Of a DNA stretch of 60,400 nucleotides, positions 18,701-34,991 are shown one piece after another. Location of the stretch: the IMG/VR virus record IMGVR_UViG_3300045988_043806; one strand, given 5' to 3'. A program made the translations under genes and the position numbers. The stretch is from a virus. Position 1 is the first letter of the stretch. Each line of letters starts with the position of its first letter. The notes beneath the pieces were generated by a model, which saw only the letters and a program-made list of their open reading frames with translations, searched no databases and had not been told where the DNA came from.

Positions 18701-18734
18701 TACCTTTATTTACAAAAAGCTCAAAAAATGAGTT

Positions 18735-19013: not shown

Positions 19014-19025
19014 GCCTCACGCCTC

Positions 19026-19512: not shown

Positions 19513-19531
19513 TTTCCGCCCTCCTGTTCCG

Positions 19532-19708
19532 TTATCCTAAGTAATCGTACCTTGTGTGCCAGTGGTATTGGTAAAATCCATTGGCAGGGTTAATCCCCTC
19601 GTACCGTTCTCGCCATTCTTTCAACATTTCCCGATATGTAAACAGCTCTCCTGTTTCTTTATTCCGGTACAGTTTCGCCGGCTGTTCGCCGGTATTTTCT
19701 TTATCCAT
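19532..19708 (-). CDS. small hypothetical protein
   Basis: GGGAGG RBS before ATG 19708 (MDKENTGEQPAKLYRNKETGELF...). The longer track ORF is probably an upstream extension. Confidence 0.4.
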   Translation of the reverse strand: MDKENTGEQPAKLYRNKETGELFTYREMLKEWRERYEGINPANGFYQYHWHTRYDYLG

Positions 19709-20375
19709 CCTGCTCGCCTCCCTCTTCCGGTAAATACTCAACTTTAATGTGAGCCGCCATGAAGCAATCAGGTTCTCCGTCAAATTCGTTGCCTGCGGAT
19801 GAGTTGAGCGTATCTCCTCTTTCCTCGCAGCACTCTCTCGGACTGCAACAGTCTGTATTCTTCCAGAGCTTTCCGTTTTCATCCTCATACACGTACCGTC
19901 CCCAATCATCCCTGCCGATATATTTCAGATGCAATGTTTTAATCTTTACAGCAGCCAATTCATAATTGATAACATCAAAATGTCCGAGCGGCTTTTTGTA
20001 TTCGATATAGCCCCATGCCTGGCAGCCTACTTCCTCAACAAACTTTTTATTGTCGAAGTTCTCAATCTCCAGGACTTCGTTATTTTTTGGCTTCGGGTAT
20101 CCTCCCGGCATGATTGGACGCTGTGTGCTGTAATACCTGTACCCTGCCGGGGAGATTTTCTTTTCTTTCGCATCAGGGTAATGTGCTATGACATCCTGTT
20201 TCGCATCCTCTATTGTTTTGAATGGTCCTGTCCCTGCGGCTCCTTTTCCCTTGTCCTCATCATAAAGAAAATGATTGTGGTATCCATCAACGTCCTGGAC
20301 TATTGCGATATGATTCACGTATCCATCATCCATATGCAGTGCTGAATGAAACATTGCTACAATATTCGCCATCAT
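19701..20375 (-). CDS. hypothetical protein (polyvalent-protein-like domain?)
   Basis: 224 aa. The YRYYSTQRPIMPGGYPK motif resembles domains of large polyvalent proteins of conjugative elements and phages (family uncertain). Cys-rich C-terminus. Confidence 0.5.
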   Translation of the reverse strand: MMANIVAMFHSALHMDDGYVNHIAIVQDVDGYHNHFLYDEDKGKGAAGTGPFKTIEDAKQDVIAHYPDAKEKKISPAGYRYYSTQRPIMPGGYPKPKNNEVLEIENFDNKKFVEEVGCQAWGYIEYKKPLGHFDVINYELAAVKIKTLHLKYIGRDDWGRYVYEDENGKLWKNTDCCSPRECCEERGDTLNSSAGNEFDGEPDCFMAAHIKVEYLPEEGGEQDG

Positions 20376-20425
20376 TTGTATGTCCTCACTTTCTGCCCTC
20401 GTACCCTCCGGGGCGGGTAACTGTT

Positions 20426-20740
20426 TTATAATTCAAATGCCATTGCTGCATCTTTCTCCGATGCTCCCTGTTCCATGCAGGCGTTGTATCTCATCAACTG
20501 CCGTTCCTCTTTAATCTCCCTGATTCTCTTTAAGGTTGGCCAGTCCACCAATGCGCCCACGCAATACGCCTTTTCCATAAGCTCCTCGACTTCGCTGATT
20601 CTTTCCTGGACCTCATCCCACTGCTCGTCTGTATATGTGTGTGCCGGTGCCTCCTGCATGTCAATTTCGATGCATTTCAGCTTATCGTGCATCGAATACA
20701 GGTTGAAATGTTCGCTCTCGTTTACTCTGTACTTTTTCAT
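20426..20740 (-). CDS. hypothetical protein
   Basis: 104-aa ORF in operon context. Confidence 0.5.
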   Translation of the reverse strand: MKKYRVNESEHFNLYSMHDKLKCIEIDMQEAPAHTYTDEQWDEVQERISEVEELMEKAYCVGALVDWPTLKRIREIKEERQLMRYNACMEQGASEKDAAMAFEL

Positions 20741-20754
20741 CAGCTCTGCTCCTC

Positions 20755-21243
20755 CTAAAACATAGTATCAAGAATCCTCTGGATAAGTTTTTCGCTTTCC
20801 TCAACCAACTGTTTGTTATGTCTGTTGTCCTGCACAGCCTGCTTAAATTCTGCGCTATCCGGATTGTCCGCAAATTCAACAATTTTTCTGGCGGATTCTT
20901 CTGTTCTTCTTATCGCCTCCGCCTTGCTATCAATAAGAATAGCTTTTATTGCGCCAGCCTCTTCCAACGTGAGAACTTTCTGTTCAAGTTCTTCGACAGT
21001 TCTCTTCTCTGCTTCATAATCTTTCACTGCACTTTCGTACATTTCTTTATATTTTGCTGCCTCTGCCGCCGAACTTTCGGCTCTCTGTTTCATGCTGCAT
21101 CCGAAATCATTTTCAATGTTTCCCTCGGCAATTTCAAAGCATCCCTCAAATGCCATGCTGATATAGCTATCCTCTCCAAGGTCTGTCACGATTTTTTTGA
21201 TTTTTTCCAACGCTTTCCGTTCCTGCTCTTTGGTTGCTGCCAT
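20755..21243 (-). CDS. hypothetical coiled-coil protein
   Basis: AGGAGG 8 nt before ATG 21243 (MAATKEQERK...). The track start 21282 is a GTG without an RBS. Confidence 0.5.
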   Translation of the reverse strand: MAATKEQERKALEKIKKIVTDLGEDSYISMAFEGCFEIAEGNIENDFGCSMKQRAESSAAEAAKYKEMYESAVKDYEAEKRTVEELEQKVLTLEEAGAIKAILIDSKAEAIRRTEESARKIVEFADNPDSAEFKQAVQDNRHNKQLVEESEKLIQRILDTMF

Positions 21244-21290
21244 CTCTATGTCCTCCTGCATTCCGCTCTTGATTTCTTCCACCGCCCTGC

Positions 21291-21337
21291 TATAATAAAA
21301 GGGTAAGGCTTGGCGGTGGCAGGAACCGCCTTACCCT
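21291..21337 (-). terminator. intrinsic terminator between leader ORF and the P3 operon body
   Basis: Minus strand AGGGTAAGGC-N18-GCCTTACCCT (10-bp stem; the loop holds a nested GGCGG/CCGCC pair) followed by TTTTATTATA. Confidence 0.6.
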
Positions 21338-21358
21338 TATTACGGATTGGAAACCCTC

Positions 21359-21502
21359 TTACTTACCAGGTGTCGGGGTTTCCTTTTTTAATACCTCAAT
21401 TTTCTTTCGTATGATGCCTGCGGCATCTTCTCCGGTCTTTGCTTTCAGCTCCACGTTTTCTGCTAATGTTTCTAAAAATAAAATCAACTCTGTCTGTGTC
21501 AT
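21359..21502 (-). CDS. small leader ORF (47 aa)
   Basis: Hand-translated MTQTELILFLETLAENVELKAKTGEDAAGIIRKKIEVLKKETPTPGK. GGAGGA 7 nt upstream. Lies between P3 and the terminator. Confidence 0.35.
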   Translation of the reverse strand: MTQTELILFLETLAENVELKAKTGEDAAGIIRKKIEVLKKETPTPGK

Positions 21503-21547
21503 TTTAAATTCCTCCATGTACTCTTAACCTCCTGCCTTGGTTTATTC

Positions 21548-21603
21548 CAACTCGTTTTATTGAGTTGTTGACATTATAATAACACGTAGGTTAGTAGTGT
21601 CAA
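21548..21603 (-). promoter_or_regulatory. promoter cassette P3 (-35 TTGACA, -10 TATTAT) with inverted repeat
   Basis: TTGACA(21603..21598)-N16-TATTAT(21581..21576), then CAACTC-N8-GAGTTG (21548..21567). Confidence 0.6.
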
Positions 21604-21715
21604 TATGTTTATTTACAATTTTTGAAAAAGTTTTTGAGGTACAAATGAACATAAATATATTTATATATCTGTATCTTTATCTGTTTCTGTATCTGTATCG
21701 GGTTTTTTCGGTTCA

Positions 21716-21941
21716 GAAAATAACCGTTCGGTAATTCGGTTTTTATTTTAGAAATGAATCATCAGAAAATCCTTATTTTATGCGGCTTTCAAGGATTGTA
21801 AGAAAATAACCGTTCGGCTTTTCGGTTTTCTGTACTGGTGGTACAAATTTTGAAGTCCAGGTTTGAACCTGGTACAAACTCAAAAAATAAACCGAAATTT
21901 TCCGAACGCATAAAAAAATAACCGTTCGGTATCGGTCGGTT
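21716..21941 (+). repeat. iteron-like direct repeats in an AT-rich non-coding region
   Basis: GAAAATAACCGTTCGG at 21716 and 21802, and AAAAATAACCGTTCGG at 21914, each followed by TTCGG/TCGG repeats. At least 8 TTCGG/CCGAA pentamers in about 230 bp. No ORF. Confidence 0.6.
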
Positions 21942-22007
21942 ACCAAACGATTATTTTATCAACTCAATATTTTGTGGATAATGTGAATAACTATGGGGAT
22001 AACTCTG

Positions 22008-22942
22008 TTATTGTATCTGCTCAATATCTCCATTATCGAGATAAACTATAAAATCCTGGAGGACTGTTCCACTGAACATCAGGTTAGCATCGTGCTCCTC
22101 TCCCTTTACATACTCATGGACCGTAACGAACAGGTTTCCGCTAAGATACTGTATCTTCGTTGTTGTATTATTATAAAAATTCACAATGCAGTGAATCTCA
22201 TCATCGTTCGTAAATTTCCATTGGTAGTAATCTTTTGCGTATTCCACCATCTGCACATCCGCAGAAATGGCAGACACTCTCCACTTTCCAGTAACATCAT
22301 TCCGCACTTTATCCCTGGAAAAGGTTGCATCTATATCGTGACAGCTCTTGTCACTGATTCCGTACATTCCATCCCGGTGTGGTACTTCCTGCGTTTCAGG
22401 CTCTTTGGATTCCTCCTGCGTGTCCTCTACCGCCGCAGGCTCTGTTGTTTCTTCCTGCTTTATCAATTCCCCTGTTGTGTAGTTATACGCATCCTTACCG
22501 GTTGTAGGATAATACAAATGTCCGTTCTCGCTGTCAGTGATATAAACAACCGTCCAGTTATTATTCAGGTACTGGCATCTGACGATAAGGTTTTGTGCAT
22601 CTGTGATAAGGTAAGCCTCCATATCGACAACACTTCCGGCTGTCTTGTAATTCCCCCAATAGCAATCAGAAACTTTCTTTACTCCAATCGACTGTAAAGC
22701 CGTTTCCAGAGCTTTGACCGCTCCATCCCCATCCGGGCATGATTCAGCCTGTTCTTGCGTTATTTTTGTGAATCCGTCCGGCATTTCTACCGTCGATGTC
22801 GGCTCTACTTCGCTACTTTCGCTTTCCGCTACGCTCTCGGTCTGCGAGGTATCAACATCCGTTGTACCCCCCCCCCCGAACATCCGTTCAGGGCAAGACC
22901 AGTTATGGCAAACGCCAATAATAAAAAATGTCTTTTTCTCAT
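22008..22942 (-). CDS. putative surface lipoprotein, with signal peptide out of frame with the body at a G11 tract
   Basis: AGGAGG-N10-ATG(22942) encodes MRKRHFLLLAFAITGLALNGCS, then G11 (22877..22867). The 291-aa body (22883..22008) is in another frame; G12 or G9 would fuse them. Confidence 0.55.
22867..22877. repeat. C11/G11 homopolymer tract
   Basis: Eleven consecutive C on the plus strand, immediately after the lipobox Cys codon. Confidence 0.95.
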
Positions 22943-23068
22943 TCCTCTTAGACCTCCTGGCTTTTTCTACAGTCTACCATATATGCATAATATTTTCGAG
23001 TATAAAAAAAGAACCCCTCCACCACATTTTGTGTGATAGAGAGGTCCGTTCTCCTTATTTGTCAAGCA

Positions 23069-24577
23069 TTAACAGCGTACAGAATATTCTGACTGTAACG
23101 AAAACCATCCTGCGCCAGATTTCAGCTTGCCCCATTTTACGCCATTTACAGTGCGTTCTTCCACTACTGTATATTTGTAACTCTTTTTCAAATATCCCAG
23201 TACCTTTGTTCCACTGGTTCCAGGATTGTCCCTGTATCTCAATCCATCAACTGTGATTTTTACCACATAGTTGCATGACGTTCCGGTATTTGCCGATGCC
23301 GGATATACCTTGTTTCCGTTGGAATCAAATACGCTATAACCCTTATTTTCGTCAGCACATTTTTTTGCGTTTTCCAGGCTCGTAAATGCACCTTTCTGAC
23401 TCGCTGCATCAGCCCAGGTTTTACGCACTCTGTACATCTGCTTTGTCTGCGTTCCACCGGAAGTGCTGTTGCCGGTTCCTCCACCATTAAGGATGGATTT
23501 TACCATATTTTTGAATGCTACCCATTCAGCATTGTTACTTCCTGCCATCTGTGCCGGGCAATTCTTTCCTGTAACATCCCAGTGACGGAGTACATACTTG
23601 TCAACTTCGCCTGCACTGATGCCAAGCATTTTACAGATATACGCGCACAGATATGCGGCGTTCTGTTTAGTCTTTTCGGAAATCTTATAATTTCCGGCGG
23701 TACAGCACATCTCAATACCGATACTGTTTGCATTTCTGCAATATGCGTGTTTATATGTCTGCGCTCCACAATGCCATGCTACAGAATTTAACGGTACACT
23801 CTGGTAGATTTCCGTATCATCCACAAACAAATGGGCGGATGCATTTCTTCCGGCTCCACCGAAATAGTTTGCATTCGCCCTTGCTGTGTCCTTATTATTT
23901 CCTGTGTAATGCATAGTCACGTATGAAGCATCTCTGCTTGACCTGCTGCTGTAATTATCCGGGTTGCATCTCAAATCAGATTTGATTTTAATTCCATTGA
24001 TAACGGCTGAAAGCCATCCTGTTGTAATCGTCTTTCCCATGATAGATGTTCCTCCTTTTCCAGACGCATATTTGTCATAAAATTTCTGTCCGCATTCGGC
24101 TCTTTCTTTTTGTACGGAACTTCCCTGGTTTGCCGGTTTTTCAAAATTAAGCAGTACGGCATTTGATGCCTGGGAAACGCTCGTTGCTGTTTTCAGCACG
24201 TTCAGCACAGATTTATAGCTGCTGCTCAATTCCTGTATAAGAAATTCGAGTTGCATTTCCAGGTCACCGATGGAGGCTCCCTTTTCCTGCGCATACTTCT
24301 GCAGGTTTTGTTTTCTGCTCCAATACGTCCACTGCGCAATGCCGTATCCTGCTTTGTCATGTACGAAATTCTGATAATCGCCATTGTCTACGGATGTTGT
24401 GTAGGTATCATCCGTAAATCCCAGTATTTTCTCGTAGGTATTCTGCAAGTTAATAGGGCTCAACCCACTTTCTCGGTCCAGATTTCCCATCAAACCTGCA
24501 ACACCAAATGGATTAAGCCCCTTGCTTATCAGAAAATTCCAGATGCGCTCTTCATTGCTATTTCCTTTGAGCGACAT
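23069..24577 (-). CDS. multidomain endolysin (lysozyme-like N-domain, Amidase_2, SH3-like C-terminal repeats)
   Basis: 502 aa. GVAGLMGNLDRESGL...GIAQWTYWSR (phage lysozyme-like). YVTMHYTGN...SAHLFVDD...IGIEMC...RHWDVTGKNCP (N-acetylmuramoyl-L-alanine amidase). C-terminal SH3-like WGKLKSGAGWF. Confidence 0.85.
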   Translation of the reverse strand: MSLKGNSNEERIWNFLISKGLNPFGVAGLMGNLDRESGLSPINLQNTYEKILGFTDDTYTTSVDNGDYQNFVHDKAGYGIAQWTYWSRKQNLQKYAQEKGASIGDLEMQLEFLIQELSSSYKSVLNVLKTATSVSQASNAVLLNFEKPANQGSSVQKERAECGQKFYDKYASGKGGTSIMGKTITTGWLSAVINGIKIKSDLRCNPDNYSSRSSRDASYVTMHYTGNNKDTARANANYFGGAGRNASAHLFVDDTEIYQSVPLNSVAWHCGAQTYKHAYCRNANSIGIEMCCTAGNYKISEKTKQNAAYLCAYICKMLGISAGEVDKYVLRHWDVTGKNCPAQMAGSNNAEWVAFKNMVKSILNGGGTGNSTSGGTQTKQMYRVRKTWADAASQKGAFTSLENAKKCADENKGYSVFDSNGNKVYPASANTGTSCNYVVKITVDGLRYRDNPGTSGTKVLGYLKKSYKYTVVEERTVNGVKWGKLKSGAGWFSLQSEYSVRC

Positions 24578-24595
24578 GGTATCATCTCCTGTCTT

Positions 24596-24955
24596 TTATT
24601 CAGTTTTTGTTGTCTGTTCGTCTACTGCTTCGATTACGATTCCTGCGTTTTCCTCCATCTTCATCTGCTTGACAGCCGCTTCAATCAAAATGTTAAGCTG
24701 TTCATCAGTAATGGAAATATTCTTTGCTGTCAGCATTTCTTTTAGCAGGTCAGTAACAATAGCTTTTTTCTCGGCTCCACTCTTTGATGTGAGTACCTGC
24801 TGCGCGTATAGTACGGCCTGTGTAACCATCTTTTCGATGGCTGCCATCTTATCCTGCTCGATTCTGCTTTTAAGCCAAGGAATAACGTATCTGGCAATCA
24901 CAGCCACGCAAACCATAATCAGTAACTTTAATGCTTCAAAAATAATGTCATTCAT
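24596..24955 (-). CDS. holin (LL-H-type) candidate
   Basis: 119 aa. Single N-terminal TM (LKLLIMVCVAVIARYVIPWL) followed by a helical domain. Immediately upstream of the endolysin. Confidence 0.6.
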   Translation of the reverse strand: MNDIIFEALKLLIMVCVAVIARYVIPWLKSRIEQDKMAAIEKMVTQAVLYAQQVLTSKSGAEKKAIVTDLLKEMLTAKNISITDEQLNILIEAAVKQMKMEENAGIVIEAVDEQTTKTE

Positions 24956-25302
24956 CCTCTGTTGTCCTCCACATTTTCTATGTTTTCATTTTCACTGTTA
25001 CTGGTCCCCATATACCGGGAACCCTTGCCGCCAAAATCGTTGTATTTGAATATGTTTTCAACACCTGCTTTGACTATGTTCGCCCCCACCACAATTCGGA
25101 ACGTTTCATTCGTTTCGCTTATAAGAGTATCTAGGTAGCTGAATTGCCCGGTTTCCTTTATCGCAACCACAATCACGACCAGGGAATACAGCCAGTTCAG
25201 CACATACAATACCGACAGGCAGTTCACAATCATTTTGGTATGCTCCCACATCCAAAGAATGGCGGCTTTACTTTTATTTTTAGTAACTCTTCTTTTCCTC
25301 AC
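24952..25302 (-). CDS. membrane protein (lysis-cassette associated)
   Basis: GTG start with GGAGG RBS. Two hydrophobic helices (MIVNCLSVLYVLNWLYSLVVIVVAI). Confidence 0.5.
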   Translation of the reverse strand: MRKRRVTKNKSKAAILWMWEHTKMIVNCLSVLYVLNWLYSLVVIVVAIKETGQFSYLDTLISETNETFRIVVGANIVKAGVENIFKYNDFGGKGSRYMGTSNSENENIENVEDNRG

Positions 25303-25316
25303 TCCGCAACCTCCAA

Positions 25317-25670
25317 TCAGTAAAGTTGATGTAAAGCCTGGGAGTTCAGGAAATCTTTCTGTTCATGCTTCACTTTCTGAGCATAATCCAGGGCGGCGTG
25401 CATATCTCCATTGCATTTCGCATCAGGGATACGCTGTACCGCTTTTGCTGTGGCTTCTCCGAGCGCAAGCGAGGCATTTATGCAGTTGATGATGCACAGC
25501 TCGCCCTTTTCTCTCGCCTGTTCCCTCTCGTCCTGCTCTTTCTGCCTTTTCTTGCGTTCCTCCTTGTCCCGCTCCTCTCGCTTCTCCATGTGGTGTTCCA
25601 AGCACCAAAAGCAAAAACCTGTGATTGCCGATGGAATCCCTATGGCGATGGCTAATGAAAATAAATCCAT
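25317..25670 (-). CDS. membrane protein (lysis-cassette associated)
   Basis: Start at MDLFSLAIAIGIPSAITGFCFWCL. One TM, then a highly charged Lys/Glu/Arg segment. Confidence 0.5.
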   Translation of the reverse strand: MDLFSLAIAIGIPSAITGFCFWCLEHHMEKREERDKEERKKRQKEQDEREQAREKGELCIINCINASLALGEATAKAVQRIPDAKCNGDMHAALDYAQKVKHEQKDFLNSQALHQLY

Positions 25671-25690
25671 TGTCCTATACTTCCTTTCTC

Positions 25691-25960
25691 TCACTCCAAC
25701 AAATCCAGGTAGTCAGCCGGTGCGTCCTGCGGAGTAAGGTTGTAATCCTCAATTATTTTCTGAATAACAACACTGAAAATGGCATCCGTAAGCGCATCCT
25801 CGAAAGGACGGTACGAATGCCATATCAAATGGTTATGCAGGTTGAATAATTTTTCTTCATTCTCCTGCTCTTCTGTATTCAGATGTAATTCCCTTGCCGC
25901 ATCCTCCAACCGGTCAAAGTTGTAATATTCTGACAAGGGCGGTATCGATATTTTATTCAT
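25691..25960 (-). CDS. hypothetical protein
   Basis: 89-aa acidic ORF. Confidence 0.45.
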   Translation of the reverse strand: MNKISIPPLSEYYNFDRLEDAARELHLNTEEQENEEKLFNLHNHLIWHSYRPFEDALTDAIFSVVIQKIIEDYNLTPQDAPADYLDLLE

Positions 25961-26011
25961 AAGGCATTATGCCAGGTGGACTTCTGCAAAGCACCTGCTT
26001 TTTCCCTCCTC

Positions 26012-26191
26012 TTACTGGTATTCCTTTCCGGTAATCTCCGTATATTCTTCTGCTGTGATTCTCTTTTTCTTGACAGCATTTTTTACCATGGCGGCGTTCC
26101 AGAAACCGCTGTCATGGTAACCTTTGATGTCCTCAAATTTAGGACTGTGCTGTACTTCCTGCGCCTGTTCCATGTTCTGTGTATCACTCAT
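26012..26191 (-). CDS. XkdX-like small phage protein (59 aa)
   Basis: Hand-translated ...YHDSGFWNAAMVKNAVKKKRITAEEYTEITGKEYQ, matching the XkdX pattern (W..., ITxEEYxEITG). Below the ORF-track cut-off. Confidence 0.5.
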   Translation of the reverse strand: MSDTQNMEQAQEVQHSPKFEDIKGYHDSGFWNAAMVKNAVKKKRITAEEYTEITGKEYQ

Positions 26192-26351
26192 CGTCTACGC
26201 CTCCCATTTCGTTTTTATCTTCTGTCGGAATATCAATATCTGCCATCATAGCCAGATAATCAATCATGGCTGCCTGCTCTGCAACTGTTGCACGCAGGTT
26301 TTCATTCGCCCGGCTATCATAAATACTGCCGTCCATCTGCTTAATTCTCAT
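26184..26351 (-). CDS. small hypothetical protein (55 aa)
   Basis: Hand-translated MRIKQMDGSIYDSRANENLRATVAEQAAMIDYLAMMADIDIPTEDKNEMGGVDDE. The start overlaps the RT stop and the stop overlaps the next start. Confidence 0.35.
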   Translation of the reverse strand: MRIKQMDGSIYDSRANENLRATVAEQAAMIDYLAMMADIDIPTEDKNEMGGVDDE

Positions 26352-27462
26352 TGTCAGTTACCTCCGTTTCTTGGTCATTCCATAAACTCTTGTAAAATTT
26401 GTCCATGCGGCGTATAAGGTGAAAGGAATTTCCTTTGCTCGCATGGCTCCTCCATGCTTGATAACAGTCATCTACTTTCGCCTTTGTGATTTCGCCTCTT
26501 TTGGCTTTCCTCACCAGCTTACGGAGCTTTCTGCGCCTTTCTTTGACTTTCTCCGAGCTGACTGTCATGATAACTTTTCCAGTATCCGTCAACCGATACT
26601 TGAATCCCAGGAATGTAAAGCCCTCTTTAATGCTGAATACTTTCGTTTTCTTCGAGTTGTACTCCATTCCCCTGCTTGCAAGGTATTTCTCATTTATCAA
26701 TTTTAGGTTTTCCAGATATTCTTTTGATGGATGGAACAGTGTTGAATCATCCATATATCTGCCGTAATCCTCGGCTTCGGTCTGCTCCCTCATCATATGG
26801 TCGTACTCACTTAGAAATGTAATACCGGCTATCTGTATCATTTGGCTGCCAGGATTATATCCCACATCCCCTGCGTACTGTCCGTCAAGAACAGTTGCAG
26901 TCTGCTCATACAGCCAATCGTCCAGTTTATCCCGGAACAATTCTTTTGTAAGGTCATGCCTCATATTCGGGTAATATCCATGAATGTCGCATTGTAAACC
27001 ATAGAAATCTGTGCCATATTTCCGATACATCCTTTGCAGAAATATTTTCATTCTATCCCTTGCATCGTCCGTTCCCTTTCCTTTCTGGCAAGCCCAATTA
27101 TCACGAATGAGCTGTTTTGTCATAATCGGGTATAGAGCGTTATCATTCAAACTCCGCTGATATACCCTATCCCGAAAGCAAGTACTTATTATGTCCCTGG
27201 GTTTCGGTGATGTTATCTTAAATTGTGTTGTCGGCCTTGCTTTATAGGTTCCCTTTTCAAGCTCTTCGCTCAATTTGTAAGTTTCCTCCATGCTGTTAAG
27301 CACATAATGAGCAACCGAACCTTTCCAGGTAACCCCTTTCTTACTTTTCATCATTGAATCGTACAAGGCATCGAAACCGATTATCTCTTCTCTATCCACG
27401 TAATTTGAATTATTGTCCATAACGTATATAGCAGTACCAGTCCTTTCAAGGGCTGACTGCAT
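26341..27462 (-). CDS. DGR reverse transcriptase
   Basis: 373 aa. YGRYMDDSTLF (YMDD box) and GSQMIQ in the motif-4 region. Located about 100 nt downstream of the TR. Confidence 0.9.
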   Translation of the reverse strand: MQSALERTGTAIYVMDNNSNYVDREEIIGFDALYDSMMKSKKGVTWKGSVAHYVLNSMEETYKLSEELEKGTYKARPTTQFKITSPKPRDIISTCFRDRVYQRSLNDNALYPIMTKQLIRDNWACQKGKGTDDARDRMKIFLQRMYRKYGTDFYGLQCDIHGYYPNMRHDLTKELFRDKLDDWLYEQTATVLDGQYAGDVGYNPGSQMIQIAGITFLSEYDHMMREQTEAEDYGRYMDDSTLFHPSKEYLENLKLINEKYLASRGMEYNSKKTKVFSIKEGFTFLGFKYRLTDTGKVIMTVSSEKVKERRRKLRKLVRKAKRGEITKAKVDDCYQAWRSHASKGNSFHLIRRMDKFYKSLWNDQETEVTDNEN

Positions 27463-27563
27463 CGCTACAGTGGTGTTTTGCCATTCGGCAAGGATAAGAA
27501 CTTCTTGTGTTAGATTGGTCGGAGCACCACCTCTGTGAGGCAGCCGTATGTCCTAAATACCAC

Positions 27564-27683
27564 ACAATCCGGAGCGCAGCGATTAGCCCAGTTCGCGTTG
27601 TTGTTGTTGACGTTACCATCGGAGTTCACATACCACGTATTGTTCGAGTTGCTCCGATTAGCCGAGCGCAGGCGGACGTTCTG
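27564..27683 (-). repeat. DGR template repeat (TR, ~120 nt, non-coding RNA template)
   Basis: AAC/AAT-rich (about 32 adenines by my count). Identical to VR1 and VR2 except at adenines. Lacks the downstream hairpin found after both VRs. Confidence 0.85.
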
Positions 27684-27714
27684 CGTTTCAGTCCTCATCC
27701 CTGTATAATAAACA

Positions 27715-28140
27715 CTATTTCCGTTGTTTTACGGCATAGCGTTCACTATCGCTTTCATTCCAGTTTCGTATCATTCCCCGGATTTTTAATACTTTACCAA
27801 CCCAGTATTTGACACGCTTTGATTTCAGGTGAAACGAGGATTTTGCGATGCCTATGAGTGCTAAAAGCCTGTTGCAATTTCTTGCGGCTCTTAACTGTAG
27901 ACGGCTCCTCTCCTCCCAGTTGCTATCGCCACGTTTCTGTACTCTGATATTGTTTGCGTCCCATGAATCTATGTAAATATTCTTTGCGGTTTCCACAATA
28001 TCGTCCGTAACGCAGCCTTTATATTCTGGAAGAAATATTTTCTCATTTCTTGTAATCTGGAGCGTATATGTCACAAGGTCCAACTCGTGCATGAATACGT
28101 CCATCTTACATGGTCGTCTTTCTCCCTCTGGTACTGCCAT
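27715..28140 (-). CDS. avd: Avd-like accessory variability determinant
   Basis: 141 aa, basic and predicted helical. AAAGGAGG RBS before ATG 28140. Canonical position between the target gene and the TR. Confidence 0.7.
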   Translation of the reverse strand: MAVPEGERRPCKMDVFMHELDLVTYTLQITRNEKIFLPEYKGCVTDDIVETAKNIYIDSWDANNIRVQKRGDSNWEERSRLQLRAARNCNRLLALIGIAKSSFHLKSKRVKYWVGKVLKIRGMIRNWNESDSERYAVKQRK

Positions 28141-28165
28141 CTTGATTCCTCCTTTCAAAAAATAT

Positions 28166-28187
28166 CCCGGCATCCGTGGGTGCCGGG
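28166..28187 (-). promoter_or_regulatory. DGR target-recognition hairpin downstream of VR1
   Basis: Coding-strand CCCGGCA-CCCACGGA-TGCCGGG about 20 nt past the stop codon. One loop base differs from the 13314..13335 copy. Confidence 0.6.
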
Positions 28188-28206
28188 GATTAAAACGATT
28201 ATTCGA

Positions 28207-29427
28207 TTAGCAAAGCCAACAAGCCGGAGCGCAGCGACAAGCCCAGTTCGCGCCGCCGTAGCCGCTGACGGCACCATCGGAGCTCACATACCACGTACCG
28301 TCCGAGGTGCCCCGATAAGCCGAGCGCAGGCGGACGCTCTGCGGCGAAGTGTGATTCTCAATCGCAAATGTACGAATCTGCGGATAAGTCTTGTACTGCT
28401 GCATTTTCTCCGCCATACCGGATGCACGTTTCCAGTATTCCCATACATCGTCCTCGCCAGCTTTCTGCGGATTGATTGACATTGCCTCCAAACTCGGCAG
28501 GAACACTTTATCGTAAGTTACCTCAATACCGTCCGTATCTCCATTGTCTGTAAGAGTGTTCTTCCAGGTGGATACTTTCGTTGCTTTCAATCTCTTTGTA
28601 AATTCCTCATCGAATCCGGTAAGAAATCCATGCTTTTCTTTGAGCTGGTCCGGTGTACGGTCAAAATTGTGCTGTGGTGTCCACCACTTACCGTTTGCCT
28701 CTTCGGAATTAAGCCACTGACGCATAGCACTCTGCGCCCAACGGTTATATCCGTAAGCTGTGCTCTGCAATCCATTCAATGGCGATGTCGGTTTGAAAGA
28801 TAATGTACCAAGGGCGGTTCCGCCTGTTCCCTCCACCATCGCTACAGTTTCGATAGGGTCTGTTGCCGTATTGCTCTCGAATGAATATACTTTCCATTCG
28901 CTCAGGCTGACATCCGGTGCTCCGTATAATCCTGCAAGCTGTCCTTTCGCTGGTACAGGCTTCGTAAGCGTGAACTGGTATGTTTTACCCTTTACGCAGT
29001 TATTTCCCCAGGTATCACCGATAATGACATTGTAGGTTCCTGCCGGTAACTGCTTCTCGCAATACTTAAACGCCTGGAACTGGTTGAACTGCACGCCAAA
29101 AGGCGTTGCATAATGCCACTGTACCAACATTCCCGGTACAGTTTCGCCATCCGCAAGTGTGACATCTCCAAAATGTACCACATCAAGCGGACACTCATAT
29201 GTTTTTCCGGTTGCTTTGTCGGTCCATGGTAAAATAATCTGGTCGCCATAATTAAAAACCTGGCTTGCATTTCCTGACTGAACCACTGCAAACACATCTG
29301 CAATGGAAGTCGGTTTGTAATTGTACCCACTGGCAATCGCTGTGAGTAATTCGTTCTGTTTCTCCATCAATCCAAGAAACTGCTGACCGGTTTTATCCAA
29401 CAGCATCGGTTCTGTAATTTTGCTCAT
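28207..29427 (-). CDS. DGR variable protein 1: tail-fibre/receptor-binding protein with C-type-lectin-fold VR
   Basis: 406 aa. Last structural gene after the baseplate genes. The C-terminus SVRLRSAYRGTSDGTWYVSSDGAVSGYGGANWACRCAPACWLC aligns to the TR. Confidence 0.85.
   Translation of the reverse strand: MSKITEPMLLDKTGQQFLGLMEKQNELLTAIASGYNYKPTSIADVFAVVQSGNASQVFNYGDQIILPWTDKATGKTYECPLDVVHFGDVTLADGETVPGMLVQWHYATPFGVQFNQFQAFKYCEKQLPAGTYNVIIGDTWGNNCVKGKTYQFTLTKPVPAKGQLAGLYGAPDVSLSEWKVYSFESNTATDPIETVAMVEGTGGTALGTLSFKPTSPLNGLQSTAYGYNRWAQSAMRQWLNSEEANGKWWTPQHNFDRTPDQLKEKHGFLTGFDEEFTKRLKATKVSTWKNTLTDNGDTDGIEVTYDKVFLPSLEAMSINPQKAGEDDVWEYWKRASGMAEKMQQYKTYPQIRTFAIENHTSPQSVRLRSAYRGTSDGTWYVSSDGAVSGYGGANWACRCAPACWLC
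28219..28341 (-). repeat. DGR variable region VR1 (123 nt)
   Basis: Aligns with TR 27564..27683. All alignable mismatches are at TR adenines. One extra codon lies within the (AAC)4 block. Confidence 0.85.
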
Positions 29428-29432
29428 CTCTT

Positions 29433-29636
29433 TTATTCCTCACTTTCATAGGTTACGCATAACGTGCCATCGACAACTGAAAATCCATATCCGTCCATCT
29501 GCTCTTTTAATGCGATGTCATTCTCAATGAGCTGTTTCGGTGCCTGGTTCACATTATCCGCATGGTTTGTGTCGGTTGTTTCCACTATCGGAATGCTGTC
29601 TTTGTAGGTAGCGGAACTCGGTTTGTATGCTTTCAT
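29433..29636 (-). CDS. hypothetical protein (tail-fibre associated)
   Basis: 67-aa ORF immediately upstream of the fibre gene. Confidence 0.45.
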   Translation of the reverse strand: MKAYKPSSATYKDSIPIVETTDTNHADNVNQAPKQLIENDIALKEQMDGYGFSVVDGTLCVTYESEE

Positions 29637-29657
29637 GGTTTCCTCCTCTCTGCCGGA

Positions 29658-30041
29658 TTAGAAAACATCATCCAGCGTGTATGTCATTTCAATATCGTTA
29701 TCCTTTCCCTTTCTGGTAAAGGTCTTGATACAAACAATATCGCCGTTGGCATCATACAGCCCAATTTCACTGATATACTGTCCGGCAAGCTCTGATTCTC
29801 CAAGCGTGCATTCGTATCTGCATGTGGTTTCTGTGATAAAGTTATAGCCGCTGATAGGCTTACGGAGCAGTTCCTTTTTCAGTGCTGTCTGTGTTTCAGA
29901 CGGAGAAATAACATTTCCTGCGCTGTCTACTCCTCCAGAGCCAAATGCCATGCCGACAATTTTAGGAAGTGTAATCGCTCCTGCTCTTGCCTGTACCATT
30001 TTCTTTCTGGCTGATTTTGTAATAATTACATTCTGTGCCAT
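29658..30041 (-). CDS. tail-collar fibre-like protein (DUF3751-like)
   Basis: 127 aa. AFGSGGVDSAGNVISPSETQTALKKELLRK...ISEIGLYDANGDIV pattern. Confidence 0.55.
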   Translation of the reverse strand: MAQNVIITKSARKKMVQARAGAITLPKIVGMAFGSGGVDSAGNVISPSETQTALKKELLRKPISGYNFITETTCRYECTLGESELAGQYISEIGLYDANGDIVCIKTFTRKGKDNDIEMTYTLDDVF

Positions 30042-30043
30042 TC

Positions 30044-31087
30044 TTAGATAGTCTCCTTTCTGTTTAATGAATTAAGCAATCTTGAACCGTTCATTTTCAA
30101 TGAACCATCAAAATATGCCAGATTCCTTTTCACTGTGCAGGTAGCATTTCCATAACTTTCAGAAATGGATGCCACCGGTATTTTGATATTTGCCGTAGTC
30201 TTATTGTCTGCTCTGCAATAATTCATCAGCAAGTTTCCATCCATCGGAACAGAGCCATCAAAAAACAAAGACTGCCAGTTAAATGCTTTCGCACTGACAG
30301 TCTGCTTCTCAATATGCATTTTTTCTGATAGCGGAACTTTCGCCCTCGCTGTCATTCGCTCAATATCCAACGTTTCTGCAATCCGAAATTCGCCCTCTTT
30401 GTATTTCACTCCGAGTCGCATTTCATATTCGATAGCCGCATCCATGAGATGTGAACCATCCCACAACTCGGAACCATCAAACCATCGAGCTTTCCAGAAC
30501 GGTATTTTGAATAGCAACCCTATATTGCTGACCATGAATTTTTCAGAAAACACAATTTCGAACATCGAATAGTCATTCACAAAATATGTTGTATGTGATT
30601 CCTTTAATTTATCAATCAGCTTTCGGACTTTCTTTGAATCCAGCGTGCCATCGCCATTGAAAAAAGCCTTAAATACATTCGGGTGAGGCGGCTTATACTT
30701 CAATGGTCCTGCATCGTGGCAATCTGCTATATGTACCGTAAATCCGGTTGCATTTTCCAGATACCGCTCCATAATGTACGGTGTCATTGGCAAATGATAA
30801 TCTCTCTTTTCGTATATCGCTTGTCTGCGCTCCTGGTAAGAAAGATTTTCCTGCACCGGCAATCCCCATTTTATTTCATGCCAGCATAATCCCCAGGTCG
30901 CTGTTTCCGGGAAAAACTGTTCCGGTAATTCCTCTGCTAGCTTCAAAGCCTTGTCATATTCCAACCCCATGACCTGAAACATCCATTTGCCGACATACGA
31001 TTTATCGTAAAATCCGGGTGTCACATAGGACAGCATTTTTAAGGCGCTCTCGCTCGTCGGGAATAATTCCAATTCTTCATCTGTCAT
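30044..31087 (-). CDS. baseplate/tail protein, XkdU/DUF2313-like
   Basis: 347 aa. N-terminal LSYVTPGFYDKS...FFPETATWGLCWHEIKWGLP pattern. Confidence 0.6.
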   Translation of the reverse strand: MTDEELELFPTSESALKMLSYVTPGFYDKSYVGKWMFQVMGLEYDKALKLAEELPEQFFPETATWGLCWHEIKWGLPVQENLSYQERRQAIYEKRDYHLPMTPYIMERYLENATGFTVHIADCHDAGPLKYKPPHPNVFKAFFNGDGTLDSKKVRKLIDKLKESHTTYFVNDYSMFEIVFSEKFMVSNIGLLFKIPFWKARWFDGSELWDGSHLMDAAIEYEMRLGVKYKEGEFRIAETLDIERMTARAKVPLSEKMHIEKQTVSAKAFNWQSLFFDGSVPMDGNLLMNYCRADNKTTANIKIPVASISESYGNATCTVKRNLAYFDGSLKMNGSRLLNSLNRKETI

Positions 31088-31098
31088 CGTCCGTCCTC

Positions 31099-32223
31099 CT
31101 AACTTCTGAAATCAATCGTTCCAGTAACCGGATATTCTTCTTTCTCCAACTTGATATTGCTCATTTTGCCATTTATCAGGAATGTGTCGAAGTCCTCCAC
31201 TCCATCAATAGCAGTTATCAGTGGGCGCACATCATTGTATCGAAGTATTCCCTCATTTTTTGCCACGCCATATACGGTAAGCACCAGCTTCTTGAAATCC
31301 TCCTCCACACGCGCCTTGTCCGCCGATTCGTCCAGTAGCAATCCTGTAATGGTATAATTCATCTTTACAGTGGTTGCAGCCACACATGACAGTTTGGCGC
31401 ACGCCGTAGGCAATAATCGTTGCATCCGGTCATTCGGAGAAACAATGTAGTTATACACATCATTTATCAGCTTTGTATTTGCCGGCTGTCCGTTTCCATC
31501 AACCAGTACCAGTTTTACGGTTCCAGGACCATCAAAAGCCGCCACAACAGTGCAATCTCCTGCGCCTGCTTCTTTCGCCCATCGGACAAAATCGCTGTCA
31601 TTCCCCAGGTATGTTTTGCTATTATCATATTCAGCAAATATCCTGTCGAAATAATCTCCGTCCTCTTCTCGCACCGTTCCACCGGAAATCGGCTCTGCAT
31701 TATCTATGCCGGTAATGTTCTTGTCACTCTTTGCCATAATGCATACGGTATGAGCTGCCACATTTGAACCGATACCACTTTCAACTGCTGTTACGGCCAC
31801 TGTTACAGTGCCATCATCAGCTATTGTGCAGTCCTCATTCGTGGCAAATTCTATCGCAGGGTTATCATCTACAGCCGGTACGCAAAAAACGGTGCCTGCG
31901 GCTATTACGCTGCCTGCAACACCGGTAATTGTTATGTTTCCAGTCGCATACTGTTCTGCGTGCCTTGTCACATGAACCTGCGCCCCATGCAAATCGAGCC
32001 AATCATCCCAGGCATACTGCGGAAACGCAAGCATTACTGCCCTTATCAGATGATAATTGATAAACTCTGATTTCTCCTCTGCCGCCGGTCTTGTGAAATC
32101 ATAAGGAAATCCGGCAGGCATATCGTCTATATCATCCGGCAAGCTCGCCATCATTCGCTCGTGTATTTCATCGGTTGTGCTCCCATCGAAGCACTCCGGT
32201 CTATGAAATTCTGGTTGCGCCAT
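31099..32223 (-). CDS. baseplate J-like protein (XkdT-like)
   Basis: 374 aa. Size and position between the XkdS-like and XkdU-like genes. DDMPAGFPYDFTRPAAEE... N-terminus typical of baseplate J. Confidence 0.7.
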   Translation of the reverse strand: MAQPEFHRPECFDGSTTDEIHERMMASLPDDIDDMPAGFPYDFTRPAAEEKSEFINYHLIRAVMLAFPQYAWDDWLDLHGAQVHVTRHAEQYATGNITITGVAGSVIAAGTVFCVPAVDDNPAIEFATNEDCTIADDGTVTVAVTAVESGIGSNVAAHTVCIMAKSDKNITGIDNAEPISGGTVREEDGDYFDRIFAEYDNSKTYLGNDSDFVRWAKEAGAGDCTVVAAFDGPGTVKLVLVDGNGQPANTKLINDVYNYIVSPNDRMQRLLPTACAKLSCVAATTVKMNYTITGLLLDESADKARVEEDFKKLVLTVYGVAKNEGILRYNDVRPLITAIDGVEDFDTFLINGKMSNIKLEKEEYPVTGTIDFRS

Positions 32224-32238
32224 CTTACCACCTCCGTT

Positions 32239-32670
32239 CTAAATATTGATTTGAAATACTTTGTCCCACTCTTTCCCCTTAACCTTGAAAGAGCAGTTCA
32301 TGCTATCGCCGTTCCATTCAAACTCGAAATCTCGCACCCATTCAGTCCTCGGATTTACAAGCAGTGCATCTCTGATGGTTCGCTCCACCATTGATTCGAC
32401 TGTCTTTTCATCGTCCTGCGCCAGTGCGTCCTCCATCTCAACACCTATATCGTTGGAATATGCAAGGCAGGAATACCGTTCTGTCATGGATACTTTCATG
32501 CACCAAATCATGTAGCCCTCTTCTCCGGTACACTCCACAACCTGGTTTGCTGCATTTCTCACGAAATCCCCTTTTTCGGGATTCCATTTCATTGTCCTTT
32601 TGTATTGTGTATCATACTCGGAACTTTCTTCGATAAACGCAGGAACGGCAACTGTTACAATATTTGCCAT
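32239..32670 (-). CDS. baseplate wedge protein, XkdS/DUF2634-like
   Basis: 143 aa. TERYSCLAYSNDIGVEMEDAL...IRDALLVNPRTEWVRDFEFEW pattern. Confidence 0.6.
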   Translation of the reverse strand: MANIVTVAVPAFIEESSEYDTQYKRTMKWNPEKGDFVRNAANQVVECTGEEGYMIWCMKVSMTERYSCLAYSNDIGVEMEDALAQDDEKTVESMVERTIRDALLVNPRTEWVRDFEFEWNGDSMNCSFKVKGKEWDKVFQINI

Positions 32671-32680
32671 CGTTTACCTC

Positions 32681-33049
32681 CTACGAACCTGTTACAACGT
32701 CTATGACGCAGGCTTCATTCATTACCCACGCCACAAGCACCCTGTCCCCAGGCTTTATCTGTGGAGGCGCAATCGTGTGACCATGGGAACCATCGCCACT
32801 TGAATGTCCTCCATGCTTTCCGCCGCTTGTTGTAAAAGATAATCCTCCTACGTGTCTGCATACCGAATATTGGCCTTTCGGAATTGCTACTGGGAAAGTA
32901 TTTGTGATGAGGCTGCCGTTTCCCTGGATTTCTCCAAAGTCCAGGCATAACGATGTATCATTTTCTCTTCGCATCCTGTCACTTAAAACATTTGCCAGCT
33001 TATTTGTACCGGCATTCGCATCGAAATTTTCCACGTTATCGCCTCCCAT
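32681..33049 (-). CDS. XkdR/DUF2577-like baseplate protein
   Basis: 122 aa. C-terminal IKPGDRVLVAWVMNEACVIDVV pattern. Confidence 0.55.
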   Translation of the reverse strand: MGGDNVENFDANAGTNKLANVLSDRMRRENDTSLCLDFGEIQGNGSLITNTFPVAIPKGQYSVCRHVGGLSFTTSGGKHGGHSSGDGSHGHTIAPPQIKPGDRVLVAWVMNEACVIDVVTGS

Positions 33050-34287
33050 TATTCAAAAGTTCCATTATCCACCCATCCGTAAACATTGCTGCCACTGTCA
33101 GTGTGTATCAAATGCCAAGGATGAGTTTTTCCAGAACCATTTTTGATTGTTATTTTCGCTTTTCCGGCTCTTGCACTATATCCTCTTGAACCAGAATAGG
33201 ACGATACATAATGCGTACCGCCCTTAAAATTTACAATATCTCCGACATTGTAATCCTTTTTCTTTGTTGTCTGTGTTGCTGTTTCGGTCTTGGCAAGTTC
33301 CAGGTCCATTGTCATGCTGTAAATATCGCAATCATGCCGGATTCCAACCACGTAATAATAATTCTGTGCGGAACCTATCATAACGTAGACTAAATCGCCT
33401 TTTCGGATGAATGGCACGTCTGGAGCCTGCACTGTAATTTCTTCATTAATCACGCCATCTTCATCGATGATTTTTTGTGCGGCTGTCTTTGCCTCATCCA
33501 GGCTTTCGTCTTTTCCTCTGGTGTAGATTCTCTGACGGATTCCGTATTTTGTAAGCCCATCTACCGTTGCCTCGACCGGAGAATTACCATCATCGTCTGC
33601 CTGCCCCAGCACCTTTACCCTGGTAACAAGGCTTGCGGTGCTTATTGACTGGCTGATAGATTTTGTGTTATCCACCCGGAACACATAAACATCTGTGTTC
33701 GTGCCACGCTCCACCACATCTGCATACCCCTCCGCCGCCCGGATGATGAATTTTCCTCCGCCCTTTTTGTAGGCATCGTCCAAAACATCCAGCAACATAT
33801 CAGATACATACGAACTGCTGTATTTCATTTTTTCGTGAGATACATTCGGTCCGCTATATCCTTTTGTGGGTATTCCCCACTCGTCAAATGCACCGGTCAT
33901 AATGGATTTTGTACCGGTTCCTGCGGAATAAAATTTGTTGTCCTGGCTCCTCTGCAAATCATACAGAGAATCATATGCAACGCATTTTAGGGTATTGGAA
34001 CTGCTTTGCTCCTGCGGATTCCATTCCTGCACCGTTCCCCTTGCCACTTCTCTGTCCTGCTTTCCTCCATCACTCGCAAAAATACCAATAAGACATCCGG
34101 GTTTGATTAACTCTGATAATCGCCCCGCAGATGTCTTATCATTCTTTGCTGTAAATGAAGTTCGGACAGAAATCTCATTTTTGTTTTCTTCCCAGCCAAG
34201 ACCTGTGACAAATTCTTTTATGTTATACTGCTTTCCGCCACTATCTATAACGGTAAGTCGGTATGCGATTTTTGATAAATCTATCAT
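33049..34287 (-). CDS. XkdQ/gpD-like baseplate hub protein
   Basis: AGGAGG 7 nt before ATG 34287. About 412 aa. Position after the LysM protein, as in the PBSX xkdP-xkdQ order. Confidence 0.55.
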   Translation of the reverse strand: MIDLSKIAYRLTVIDSGGKQYNIKEFVTGLGWEENKNEISVRTSFTAKNDKTSAGRLSELIKPGCLIGIFASDGGKQDREVARGTVQEWNPQEQSSSNTLKCVAYDSLYDLQRSQDNKFYSAGTGTKSIMTGAFDEWGIPTKGYSGPNVSHEKMKYSSSYVSDMLLDVLDDAYKKGGGKFIIRAAEGYADVVERGTNTDVYVFRVDNTKSISQSISTASLVTRVKVLGQADDDGNSPVEATVDGLTKYGIRQRIYTRGKDESLDEAKTAAQKIIDEDGVINEEITVQAPDVPFIRKGDLVYVMIGSAQNYYYVVGIRHDCDIYSMTMDLELAKTETATQTTKKKDYNVGDIVNFKGGTHYVSSYSGSRGYSARAGKAKITIKNGSGKTHPWHLIHTDSGSNVYGWVDNGTFE

Positions 34288-34298
34288 CTTCGCACCTC

Positions 34299-34988
34299 CT
34301 ATGCCGCCGGAATTGACAGCGTTGTTCCCGGCCATATCCAATGACCATGGTCTGAACTGCTTTTGCCATGTTTCTTGGCTGCCGCCTCAATCGTTGAAGC
34401 ATTTGCATCGTAAATCTTCGTCCACTTTGTACCACTTCCAAGTTTTCGTGAAGCAATCCCCCACAACGTATCGCCACTGACAATCGTGTAGGAAGAGCCT
34501 TTATTTGAGTTATCATTTCTCGGAACTGTCTTTTTTACAAAGGCGTCAATTTTTAATTCGTTTGTTGTATAGATTTTCAGGTCTTTTGCCTGTGAAAACT
34601 TAATGCCATAGCTTACATCTCCATAAGCACCAAAAGGGTCGGGTGTAAATGATTCAATCGTAACATCCATGTTAATCCATGTTTCTGTTACAAGCAGATT
34701 CAGCACCGTTCCCTCTTCCTGCCATTCCCTCAACTGCTTAATGCATTTATCGGGTTTCTGGTAACTTTCCGCTTTCACAACCGCCAGATTCTTTCTGTCC
34801 GGTCCGAAGAAAACGGCATCCCATGAGATTTCCGCCACTTCTGTTCCCTTTGGCACCTTTACGGCACCCTGGGAGATAATATCATAGGTCTGATACTTCG
34901 TCCCAAGACTGCCGCTTATCTTCTCCGGCAACGAAGAGAACGTAAACGACTTCTCTTTATCAGCCGCTTCAAACAGTTTTATTTCCAT
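34299..34988 (-). CDS. LysM-domain tail protein (XkdP-like)
   Basis: 229 aa. C-terminal LysM motif YTIVSGDTLWGIASRKLGSGTKWTKIYDAN. Confidence 0.7.
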   Translation of the reverse strand: MEIKLFEAADKEKSFTFSSLPEKISGSLGTKYQTYDIISQGAVKVPKGTEVAEISWDAVFFGPDRKNLAVVKAESYQKPDKCIKQLREWQEEGTVLNLLVTETWINMDVTIESFTPDPFGAYGDVSYGIKFSQAKDLKIYTTNELKIDAFVKKTVPRNDNSNKGSSYTIVSGDTLWGIASRKLGSGTKWTKIYDANASTIEAAAKKHGKSSSDHGHWIWPGTTLSIPAA

Positions 34989-34991
34989 CGC

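Follow-up and report, generated by a model that had tools for sequence, protein, structure and literature searches.

Near the middle of the viral sequence IMGVR_UViG_3300045988_043806 from IMG/VR (60,400 nt, analysed at its full length and referred to here as the window), a gene for a reverse transcriptase (RT) lies next to a pair of imperfect repeats, one of which forms the 3′ end of a neighbouring gene. Is this locus a working diversity-generating retroelement (DGR), which genes does it diversify, and has it done so in the recent past? Our analysis identifies it as very probably a functional and recently active DGR, and its carrier as a temperate phage with a contractile tail whose host belongs to the human-gut Clostridia.

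Organisation of the cassette and adenine-specific divergence of the repeats

An initial annotation, made by reading the sequence, had proposed a complete DGR at positions 26341–29427. It placed on the minus strand, in this order, a target gene with a variable repeat (VR1), a gene resembling the accessory variability determinant (avd), a template repeat (TR), a spacer of ~100 nt and the RT gene. Every one of these components was recovered within 2 nt of its proposed position, with the following boundaries:

29427..28207, minus strand: target gene 1, an open reading frame (ORF) of 406 aa
28343..28219, minus strand: VR1, 125 nt, delimited by repeat search and local alignment, encoding approximately the last 40 residues of target 1
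28140..27715, minus strand: avd, 141 aa, with an ATG start and AGGAGG 7 nt upstream
27685..27564, minus strand: TR, 122 nt with 32 adenines, including GTC(AAC)4GCG
27563..27463, minus strand: spacer of 101 nt between TR and RT gene (Sp-like RNA region)
27462..26341, minus strand: RT, an ORF of 373 aa with an RYMDD motif

The claim of completeness holds for the cassette, all parts of which lie within the proposed span, but not for its targets, as a second target with its own VR (13356..14348) lies outside it. For the avd ORF, an alternative start at 28173 would yield a protein of 152 aa; 28140 is the better start given the AGGAGG motif upstream.

The repeat pair was also recovered by an independent repeat search, in the form of two blocks (27608–27685 with 28266–28343, and 27564–27597 with 28219–28252), whose spacings of 658 and 655 nt, respectively, reveal a 3-nt length difference between TR and VR1. 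In the computed alignment, all substitutions between TR and VR1 (19/19) fall on TR adenines, with 32 adenines present in 122 aligned columns (hypergeometric P = 4e-14). The initial annotation had claimed this strict adenine specificity from a codon-by-codon comparison, and the nine codon changes it listed are all present (9/9). By codon position in the target frame, 15 of the TR adenines occupy position 1 and 17 position 2, and position 3 is free of them. Mutation can turn none of the 19 variable TR codons into a stop, and the theoretical VR1 repertoire amounts to ~10^19 protein variants. The TR itself sits within a 62-aa ORF (MRTETQNVRLRSANRSNSNNTWYVNSDGNVNNNNANW…; window 27510–27698, minus strand) that mirrors the target C-terminus, most likely no gene but a frame that came along with the repeat.

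A second target outside the tail module

A scan of the whole window with the TR, in which adenine positions were ignored, uncovered a third TR-like copy at 13364..13494, at the 3′ end of a 330-aa ORF:

14348..13356, minus strand: target gene 2, an ORF of 330 aa with a C-terminal DUF6273 domain (Pfam, E = 6e-12)
13472..13368, minus strand: VR2, 105 nt, corresponding at equal length to TR 27668..27564

Over these 105 nt, 14 mismatches separate TR and VR2, and 14/14 coincide with TR adenines (P = 8e-10). The DGR serves two targets, one adjacent and one non-adjacent, the latter being located 14.2 kb from the TR and outside the tail module. Its neighbours, among them a primase-like gene (phrog_19458) and a gene for a helix-turn-helix protein, belong to an early/replication region. 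The two target proteins share the VR-encoded C-terminus and a weakly similar segment upstream of it.

Turnover of the variable repeats beside a stable template

Two close relatives were available for comparison. MT835491.1, a human-faecal phage genome that carries no annotation, shows 98.6% identity across 37.5 kb (window 12587..50103). A prophage (L060) of Clostridium sp. OF09-36, a cultured human-gut isolate (NZ_QUMD01000005.1), shares 99.3% identity across 21 kb, matching window 16337–37466, and its RT is 100% identical to that of the window.

Near the cassette, the window and MT835491 differ at a background level of ~1 position per 500 nt. VR1, by comparison, holds 21 differences within 28239–28337, of which 20 are at TR-adenine sites and one is a G-to-T change, and all 17 differences in VR2 are at TR-adenine sites (17/17). 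Differences from the OF09-36 prophage are likewise concentrated in VR1, with 21 in the 28000–28500 bin that holds this repeat. Directly upstream of the 5′ boundary of VR2, three consecutive bases (window 13483–13485) also differ from MT835491, changing an arginine to a serine; this change lies outside the TR homology and is not explained by adenine mutagenesis.

The TR, in turn, differs from that of both relatives at a single base, 27653, where the minus strand of the window reads A and every other TR retrieved reads G. The A adds one mutable codon (AGC) and is unique to this genome. At the corresponding site, VR2 of the window carries A and its VR1 G, while all others among 57 VR alleles carry G. 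Both VRs of MT835491 match their own TR in carrying this G, a pattern that TR-to-VR transfer of information predicts. In the loci that were aligned with their own TR, both repeats read GGGGC.

The 57 unique VR alleles were obtained by pattern searches of IMG/VR and metagenome contigs. Across this set, 49% of TR-adenine sites were changed (789/1620), against 0.2% of all other sites (9/4401), one of the nine non-adenine changes being explained by the window's own TR variant. As judged from these sequence comparisons, the turnover of VRs beside a stable TR points to an element that has been active recently.

Cis-acting sequences and RNA structure

The ends of the repeats were searched for the elements that distinguish acceptor from template in DGRs, i.e. 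the initiation of mutagenic homing (IMH) sequence and its counterpart at the TR (IMH*):

28236..28219, minus strand: IMH-like end of VR1, CGCTGCGCTCCGG-C-TTGT
13385..13368, minus strand: IMH-like end of VR2, CGCTGCGCTCCGG-C-TTGT
27581..27564, minus strand: IMH* at the 3′ end of TR, CGCTGCGCTCCGG-A-TTGT (…CCGG-A-TTGT)
28187..28166, minus strand: GC-rich hairpin 1, CCCGGCACCCACGGATGCCGGG, 31 nt downstream of VR1 and followed by a T-run
13335..13314, minus strand: GC-rich hairpin 2, CCCGGCACCCATGGATGCCGGG, 32 nt downstream of VR2, without a T-run

The distinguishing base is C in 57/57 VR alleles and A in the TR, which marks it as a constant distinction between IMH and IMH* rather than an adenine hit by mutagenesis. 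The two hairpins are nearly identical (CCCGGCACCCA(C/T)GGATGCCGGG); no further copy was found in the window and none at the TR (two copies vs. zero expected by chance). Every related DGR retrieved has a GC-rich hairpin in the corresponding position after its VR, including the remote VR of one locus (L028). Stem sequences differ between clades by compensatory changes, and pairing is kept. In the Bordetella and Legionella systems, an inverted repeat downstream of the VR is required for efficient homing (PMC5758913). By analogy, the VR hairpins described here would be the counterparts of that repeat.

The spacer contains a covarying 8-bp hairpin (27544..27526), a conserved CACAAG(G/A)AG block (27509..27501) and a second, shorter stem (27492..27477), the stems flanking conserved CACAAGGAG and AACA blocks. 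In an alignment of 12 clade members analysed with RNAalifold, 10/11 pairs show compensatory changes. The whole TR-plus-spacer RNA folds no better than shuffled sequence (z = −0.95), the conserved hairpins being visible only comparatively.

The reverse transcriptase and its accessory protein

The RT matches RVT_1 in Pfam and phrog_1423 (E = 8e-74). A single-sequence search of the PDB did not separate 8ub7_A (328-aa chain; 58.4 bits) from a group II intron RT (57.7 bits). With a profile of the RT clade (nine members, 51–100% identity), 8ub7_A scored 98 bits (E = 4e-27, aligned end to end), compared to 69 bits for the group II intron RT and 29 for retron RTs. In its Foldseek description, 8ub7 is a ‘Diversity-generating retroelement (DGR) ribonucleoprotein reverse transcriptase’. 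The clade profile is hence closest to the Bordetella phage DGR enzyme rather than to group II or retron RTs, which supports assignment of the RT to the DGR type, as proposed at the outset for this YMDD enzyme. The motifs G(Y/F)NPGSQMIQ and RYMDD are invariant in the clade.

Identity as a group II intron, retron or defence RT was rejected. The relevant NCBIfam models remained below their cut-offs (TIGR04416, 83 of 300 bits; Drt3a, 33 of 200; Drt5, 21 of 550), an Rfam scan of the window matched no family, including group II intron and retron RNAs, and PADLOC returned generic RT-domain matches only.

The protein encoded between VR1 and TR matches phrog_3206, ‘Avd protein of DGR’ (E = 7.6e-9). As sequence searches of the protein family and structure databases found nothing (see below), its fold was compared instead. 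The AlphaFold2 (AF2) model is a four-helix bundle (mean predicted local distance difference test score, pLDDT, 87), whose best Foldseek neighbours are 2gsc, 2rld, 4dwl (Avd of the Bordetella phage) and the 8ub7 Avd chains; against 4dwl and the 8ub7 chains, the template modelling (TM) score was 0.82 on the target and the Foldseek probability 1.0. The PHROG match and the predicted fold together support identification of this gene as avd, in agreement with the initial annotation.

Target 1 as a candidate receptor-binding protein

Target 1 ends in a C-terminal DUF6273 domain (Pfam, E = 4.8e-15), preceded by N-terminal helices and a beta-sandwich in the AF2 model (pLDDT 89). A Foldseek search of the PDB returned the immunoglobulin A (IgA) peptidase 9qa6 as its sole match; according to the paper on this peptidase family, ThomasA has a DUF6273 domain at its N-terminus. 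In BFVD, matches comprised many phage ‘DUF6273 domain-containing’ proteins and one tail-collar fibre protein. Published studies describe DUF6273 as a DGR target domain of C-type-lectin-like fold whose C-terminus holds the VR, and report gut phages that diversify two DUF6273 proteins (PMC10743442, PMC11792537). Target 1 may have a lectin-like fold by analogy with this literature. Homologues of target 1 form unusually large clusters at 90% identity: the four clusters P0065, P0076, P0118 and P0132 contain 2,400 to 10,300 distinct members each, with 10,311 member sequences in P0065, the cluster of target 1 itself. Such sizes are consistent with hypervariable C-termini inflating membership.

The initial annotation took target 1 to be most likely the receptor-binding fibre. 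Gene position and DUF6273 fit this proposal: the gene follows those for Baseplate_J, a Mu gp48-like protein, a tail-collar N-terminal domain protein and a 67-aa protein, and precedes XkdX and the lysis genes. A role as receptor-binding protein or fibre, to which these features point, is plausible. Target 1 might instead be a different diversified adhesin, e.g. a decoration or mucus-binding protein akin to Hoc-like or ‘tentaclin’ DGR targets. Its DUF6273 part is hit by phrog_10993, ‘Hoc-like head decoration’, as well, functions outside the tail have been suggested for DUF6273 targets (PMC10743442), and direct structural matches to known receptor-binding proteins are lacking. Yet the location of the gene is the fibre/receptor-binding slot of PBSX-like modules, one of its BFVD matches is annotated as a tail-collar fibre protein, and immunoglobulin (Ig)-like repeats are absent from it, and we therefore judge this alternative unlikely.

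An additional codon in the AAC tract

VR1 is longer than the TR by one codon (3 nt). The coordinates given in the initial annotation implied as much (123 vs. 120 nt), although its text made no mention of it. The extra codon lies within GTC(AAC)4GCG, which in VR1 reads GTC AGC GGC TAC GGC GGC GCG. Tracts of five NNC codons were found in 9/31 unique VR1 alleles and 3/26 VR2 alleles (10/34 and 3/29 with a looser pattern), a difference between the two repeats that was not significant (Fisher P = 0.19). In the 57 alleles of the close clade, 12 thus carry one additional codon (~21%), and none lacks one. More distant clades include loci with one codon more (L023 and L033) and one with a codon less (L032). 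Tract length can differ within one genome: the window and MT835491 have five codons in VR1 and four in VR2, contig 053231 has four in VR1 and five in VR2, and VR1 of the OF09-36 prophage has four. Every correctly classified TR retrieved reads (AAC)4.

A one-codon difference between TR and VR is not a novel phenomenon, as it was already described by Wu et al. 2018, who found TR/VR length differences in 7% of DGRs, mostly multiples of three and in 74% of cases adjoining AAC repeats, and attributed them to RT slippage (PMC5758913). A 2026 study repeats this model of slippage at AAC repeats (PMC12875486). What the present locus adds is a population-scale count and a bias towards gain of one codon.

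Sources of length variation other than the RT were weighed, namely transient (AAC)5 variants of the TR, replication slippage within the VR, and assembly artefacts. Most five-codon alleles do come from metagenome or virome assemblies, the prophage of the isolate has four codons, and some low-coverage contigs contain anomalous VRs (a chimera in L063, a frameshift in L085 and a 25-nt deletion in L006). Against this stands that all correctly classified TR alleles read (AAC)4, the lone ‘TR-class’ allele with a mutated tract being the VR1/TR chimera of L063, and that the two VRs of a genome are not always equal in length despite their one shared TR. Moreover, VR tracts are imperfect repeats, which makes replication slippage or in-register k-mer chimeras unlikely, and all length variants in the 57-allele set (12/12) are in frame with the NNC pattern. 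Finally, length differences of this type are also on record from finished genomes, where they were ascribed to RT slippage at AAC repeats (PMC5758913, PMC12875486). We therefore consider these other sources quite improbable and RT slippage the better explanation.

The anomalous contigs are noted here for completeness. In L006 (IMGVR_UViG_3300029681_000026, positions 3106–3230), a VR1 allele lacks 25 nt, comprising the AAC tract and the next 16 nt, between CGC microhomologies; the deletion would frameshift the target C-terminus, and the allele is either dead or mis-assembled. L063, L085 and L101 are low-coverage human-gut metagenome contigs. L063 joins a mutated 5′ part of VR1 to the 3′ end and flank of the TR, being either a VR1/TR recombinant that lacks avd or a chimera. 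In L085, a 16-nt tract in VR2 causes a +1 frameshift. L101 has a mutated five-codon copy at the TR position, at a contig end and with a different 3′ flank.

Observations that weigh against a functional DGR

Several observations do not fit a functional, recently active DGR without reservation. Motif 4 of DGR RTs has the signature (I/L/V)GxxxSQ, and the GxNPGSQMIQ of the present RT departs from this textbook spacing: an SQ follows a glycine, but at a spacing unlike that in the IGSLTSQ of bRT, and HMMER aligns GSQMIQ to GSLTSQ. Avd has no sequence match in Pfam, NCBIfam or the PDB, be it as a single sequence or as a 22-member profile, and the four-helix bundle on which its structural comparison relies is a low-information fold, with Foldseek E-values of 0.005–0.3. 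The full-length model of target 1 recovers neither the C-type-lectin fold of Mtd nor that of TvpA in a Foldseek search of the PDB, and target 2 bears no sign of being a virion protein. The hairpin downstream of VR1, together with its T-run, also fits the pattern of an intrinsic terminator, which that of VR2 does not. Lastly, activity is deduced from differences between assembled genomes, mostly metagenomic.

This reliance on assembled consensus sequences would leave room for a fossil DGR, intact but no longer mutagenising, with TR/VR differences as relics, a reading that we deem highly improbable given that genomes with 98.6–99.3% identity differ at 17–21 positions per ~100-nt VR, nearly all of them TR-adenine sites, that 57 distinct VR alleles exist beside essentially invariant TRs, and that all ORFs and motifs of the cassette are intact.

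Genome context and host

The first 55 nt of the window are identical to its last 55 nt (1–55 vs. 60346–60400). Such terminal identity is the signature of a circular assembly with k = 55 and identifies the window as a complete circular phage genome of ~60.3 kb and not a piece of a chromosome. All genes of the window are encoded on the minus strand. The structural module is made up of terminase, a Mu-like portal, sheath, tube, an XkdN-like chaperone, tape measure, a LysM protein, a YqbQ-like protein, a sheath initiator, Baseplate_J, a Mu gp48-like protein and a protein with a tail-collar N-terminal domain; target 1, the DGR, XkdX, holin and endolysin follow. The earlier description of the carrier as a PBSX-like myovirus is borne out at the level of this module (sheath, tube, XkdN-like chaperone, sheath initiator, Baseplate_J, Mu gp48-like protein and XkdX). 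Clostridium sp. OF09-36, the bearer of the near-identical prophage, is a probable host.

Beyond the VRs, three stretches diverge from MT835491 much more strongly than the remainder. Approximately 230 differences lie at 46.0–48.5 kb, in genes 46668..47066 and 47070..48314, which have no Pfam matches; 44 lie in the Baseplate_J gene (31000–32000); and ~30 lie at 12.5–13.3 kb outside VR2. These stretches (46000–48500, 31000–32000 and 12500–13330) look like recombination mosaics and not products of DGR activity, because they contain no TR homology. In addition, window positions 58683–60400 plus 1–52 (~1.8 kb) correspond to ~330 nt in MT835491 (9170–9501), an indel or replacement between otherwise collinear genomes.

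Discussion

Adenine specificity, the direction from TR to VR, VR turnover, the asymmetry of IMH/IMH* and hairpins, the structure of the spacer and the families of RT and Avd were all read from this locus and its relatives, and a mechanism can be proposed on this basis. The TR would be transcribed together with the structured spacer, and the RT, in complex with Avd, would copy the TR RNA to cDNA, incorporating random nucleotides opposite template adenines. The cDNA would then replace the homologous VR at the 3′ end of a target gene. An acceptor VR would be marked by its GC-rich IMH (…CCGG-C-TTGT) and the hairpin ~31 nt downstream; the TR has IMH* and no hairpin, and we propose that for this reason it is never overwritten. 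Slippage on (AAC)4 would add a codon in about one-fifth of alleles, varying the length of the tract as well as its sequence. The genes diversified in this manner would be that for the tail-end DUF6273 protein, the probable receptor-binding protein, and that for the smaller DUF6273 protein of the early region, at a distance of 14 kb. For priming, the RT–Avd–RNA complex, the chemistry of homing and the receptor-binding role, this scheme follows the paradigm of Bordetella phage BPP-1 and would apply here by analogy.

With the BPP-1 DGR (mtd-avd-TR-brt), the present element shares its gene order (target with 3′ VR, avd, TR, spacer, RT), adenine-specific mutagenesis from TR to VR, the asymmetry between IMH and IMH*, and a GC-rich hairpin that follows the VR and is absent at the TR. 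Its RT is closest to bRT (8ub7_A), and its Avd resembles 4dwl in fold. In contrast to BPP-1, the target scaffold is DUF6273 instead of Mtd, the host is a Gram-positive member of the gut Clostridia, the contractile tail is PBSX-like, and a second, non-adjacent target is present. Its hairpin, with a loop of 3 nt, is placed ~31 nt beyond the end of the VR, the spacing of the RT motif is GSQ/MIQ, and in-frame codon insertions are frequent.

The closest gut relatives in kind are DGRs with two DUF6273 targets, i.e. those of the nd4/nd12 ‘tentaclin’ phages and of the Faecalibacterium prophages Lelie, CP11, Roos and Pioen. These, too, are phages of gut Firmicutes with one larger and one smaller DUF6273 target (one or two) and the VR at the DUF6273 C-terminus (PMC10743442, PMC11792537). 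Tentaclins, however, have an N-terminal lectin domain and Ig domains, whereas both VRs are C-terminal here and neither target contains Ig-like domains. The second target also differs in its placement, 14 kb off in the early/replication region and not within the cassette. The in-frame indels reported by Wu et al. 2018 resemble those seen here in being multiples of three, in falling within an AAC tandem repeat and in differing between the two targets of one DGR; there, they were concentrated in ‘Lineage 4-related’, mostly non-phage DGRs, while the present case concerns a phage DGR and was counted at population scale (PMC5758913).

Earlier work has documented targets that are not adjacent to the cassette, inverted repeats downstream of the IMH, and indels at AAC repeats that keep the frame (PMC5758913). 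The element is a DGR of an already well-described kind, and current understanding of DGRs is unchanged by it. A departure from this would arise if codon addition were a regular, directional output of the RT that tunes tract length as well, or if target 2 were a non-virion protein, with the DGR diversifying something beyond host recognition; we regard such a departure as a tentative possibility that carries some weight.

The locus offers a clean and complete example of a phage DGR, in which all cis elements are pinpointed and activity can be read from public, near-identical genomes. With the prophage present in a cultured isolate, OF09-36, it becomes practical to induce it, to sequence VR amplicons and to test host range. 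The system may therefore serve as a Gram-positive gut model of two-target DGRs, for measuring the slippage of DGR RTs on AAC repeats, and for asking what the second, non-tail DUF6273 target does.

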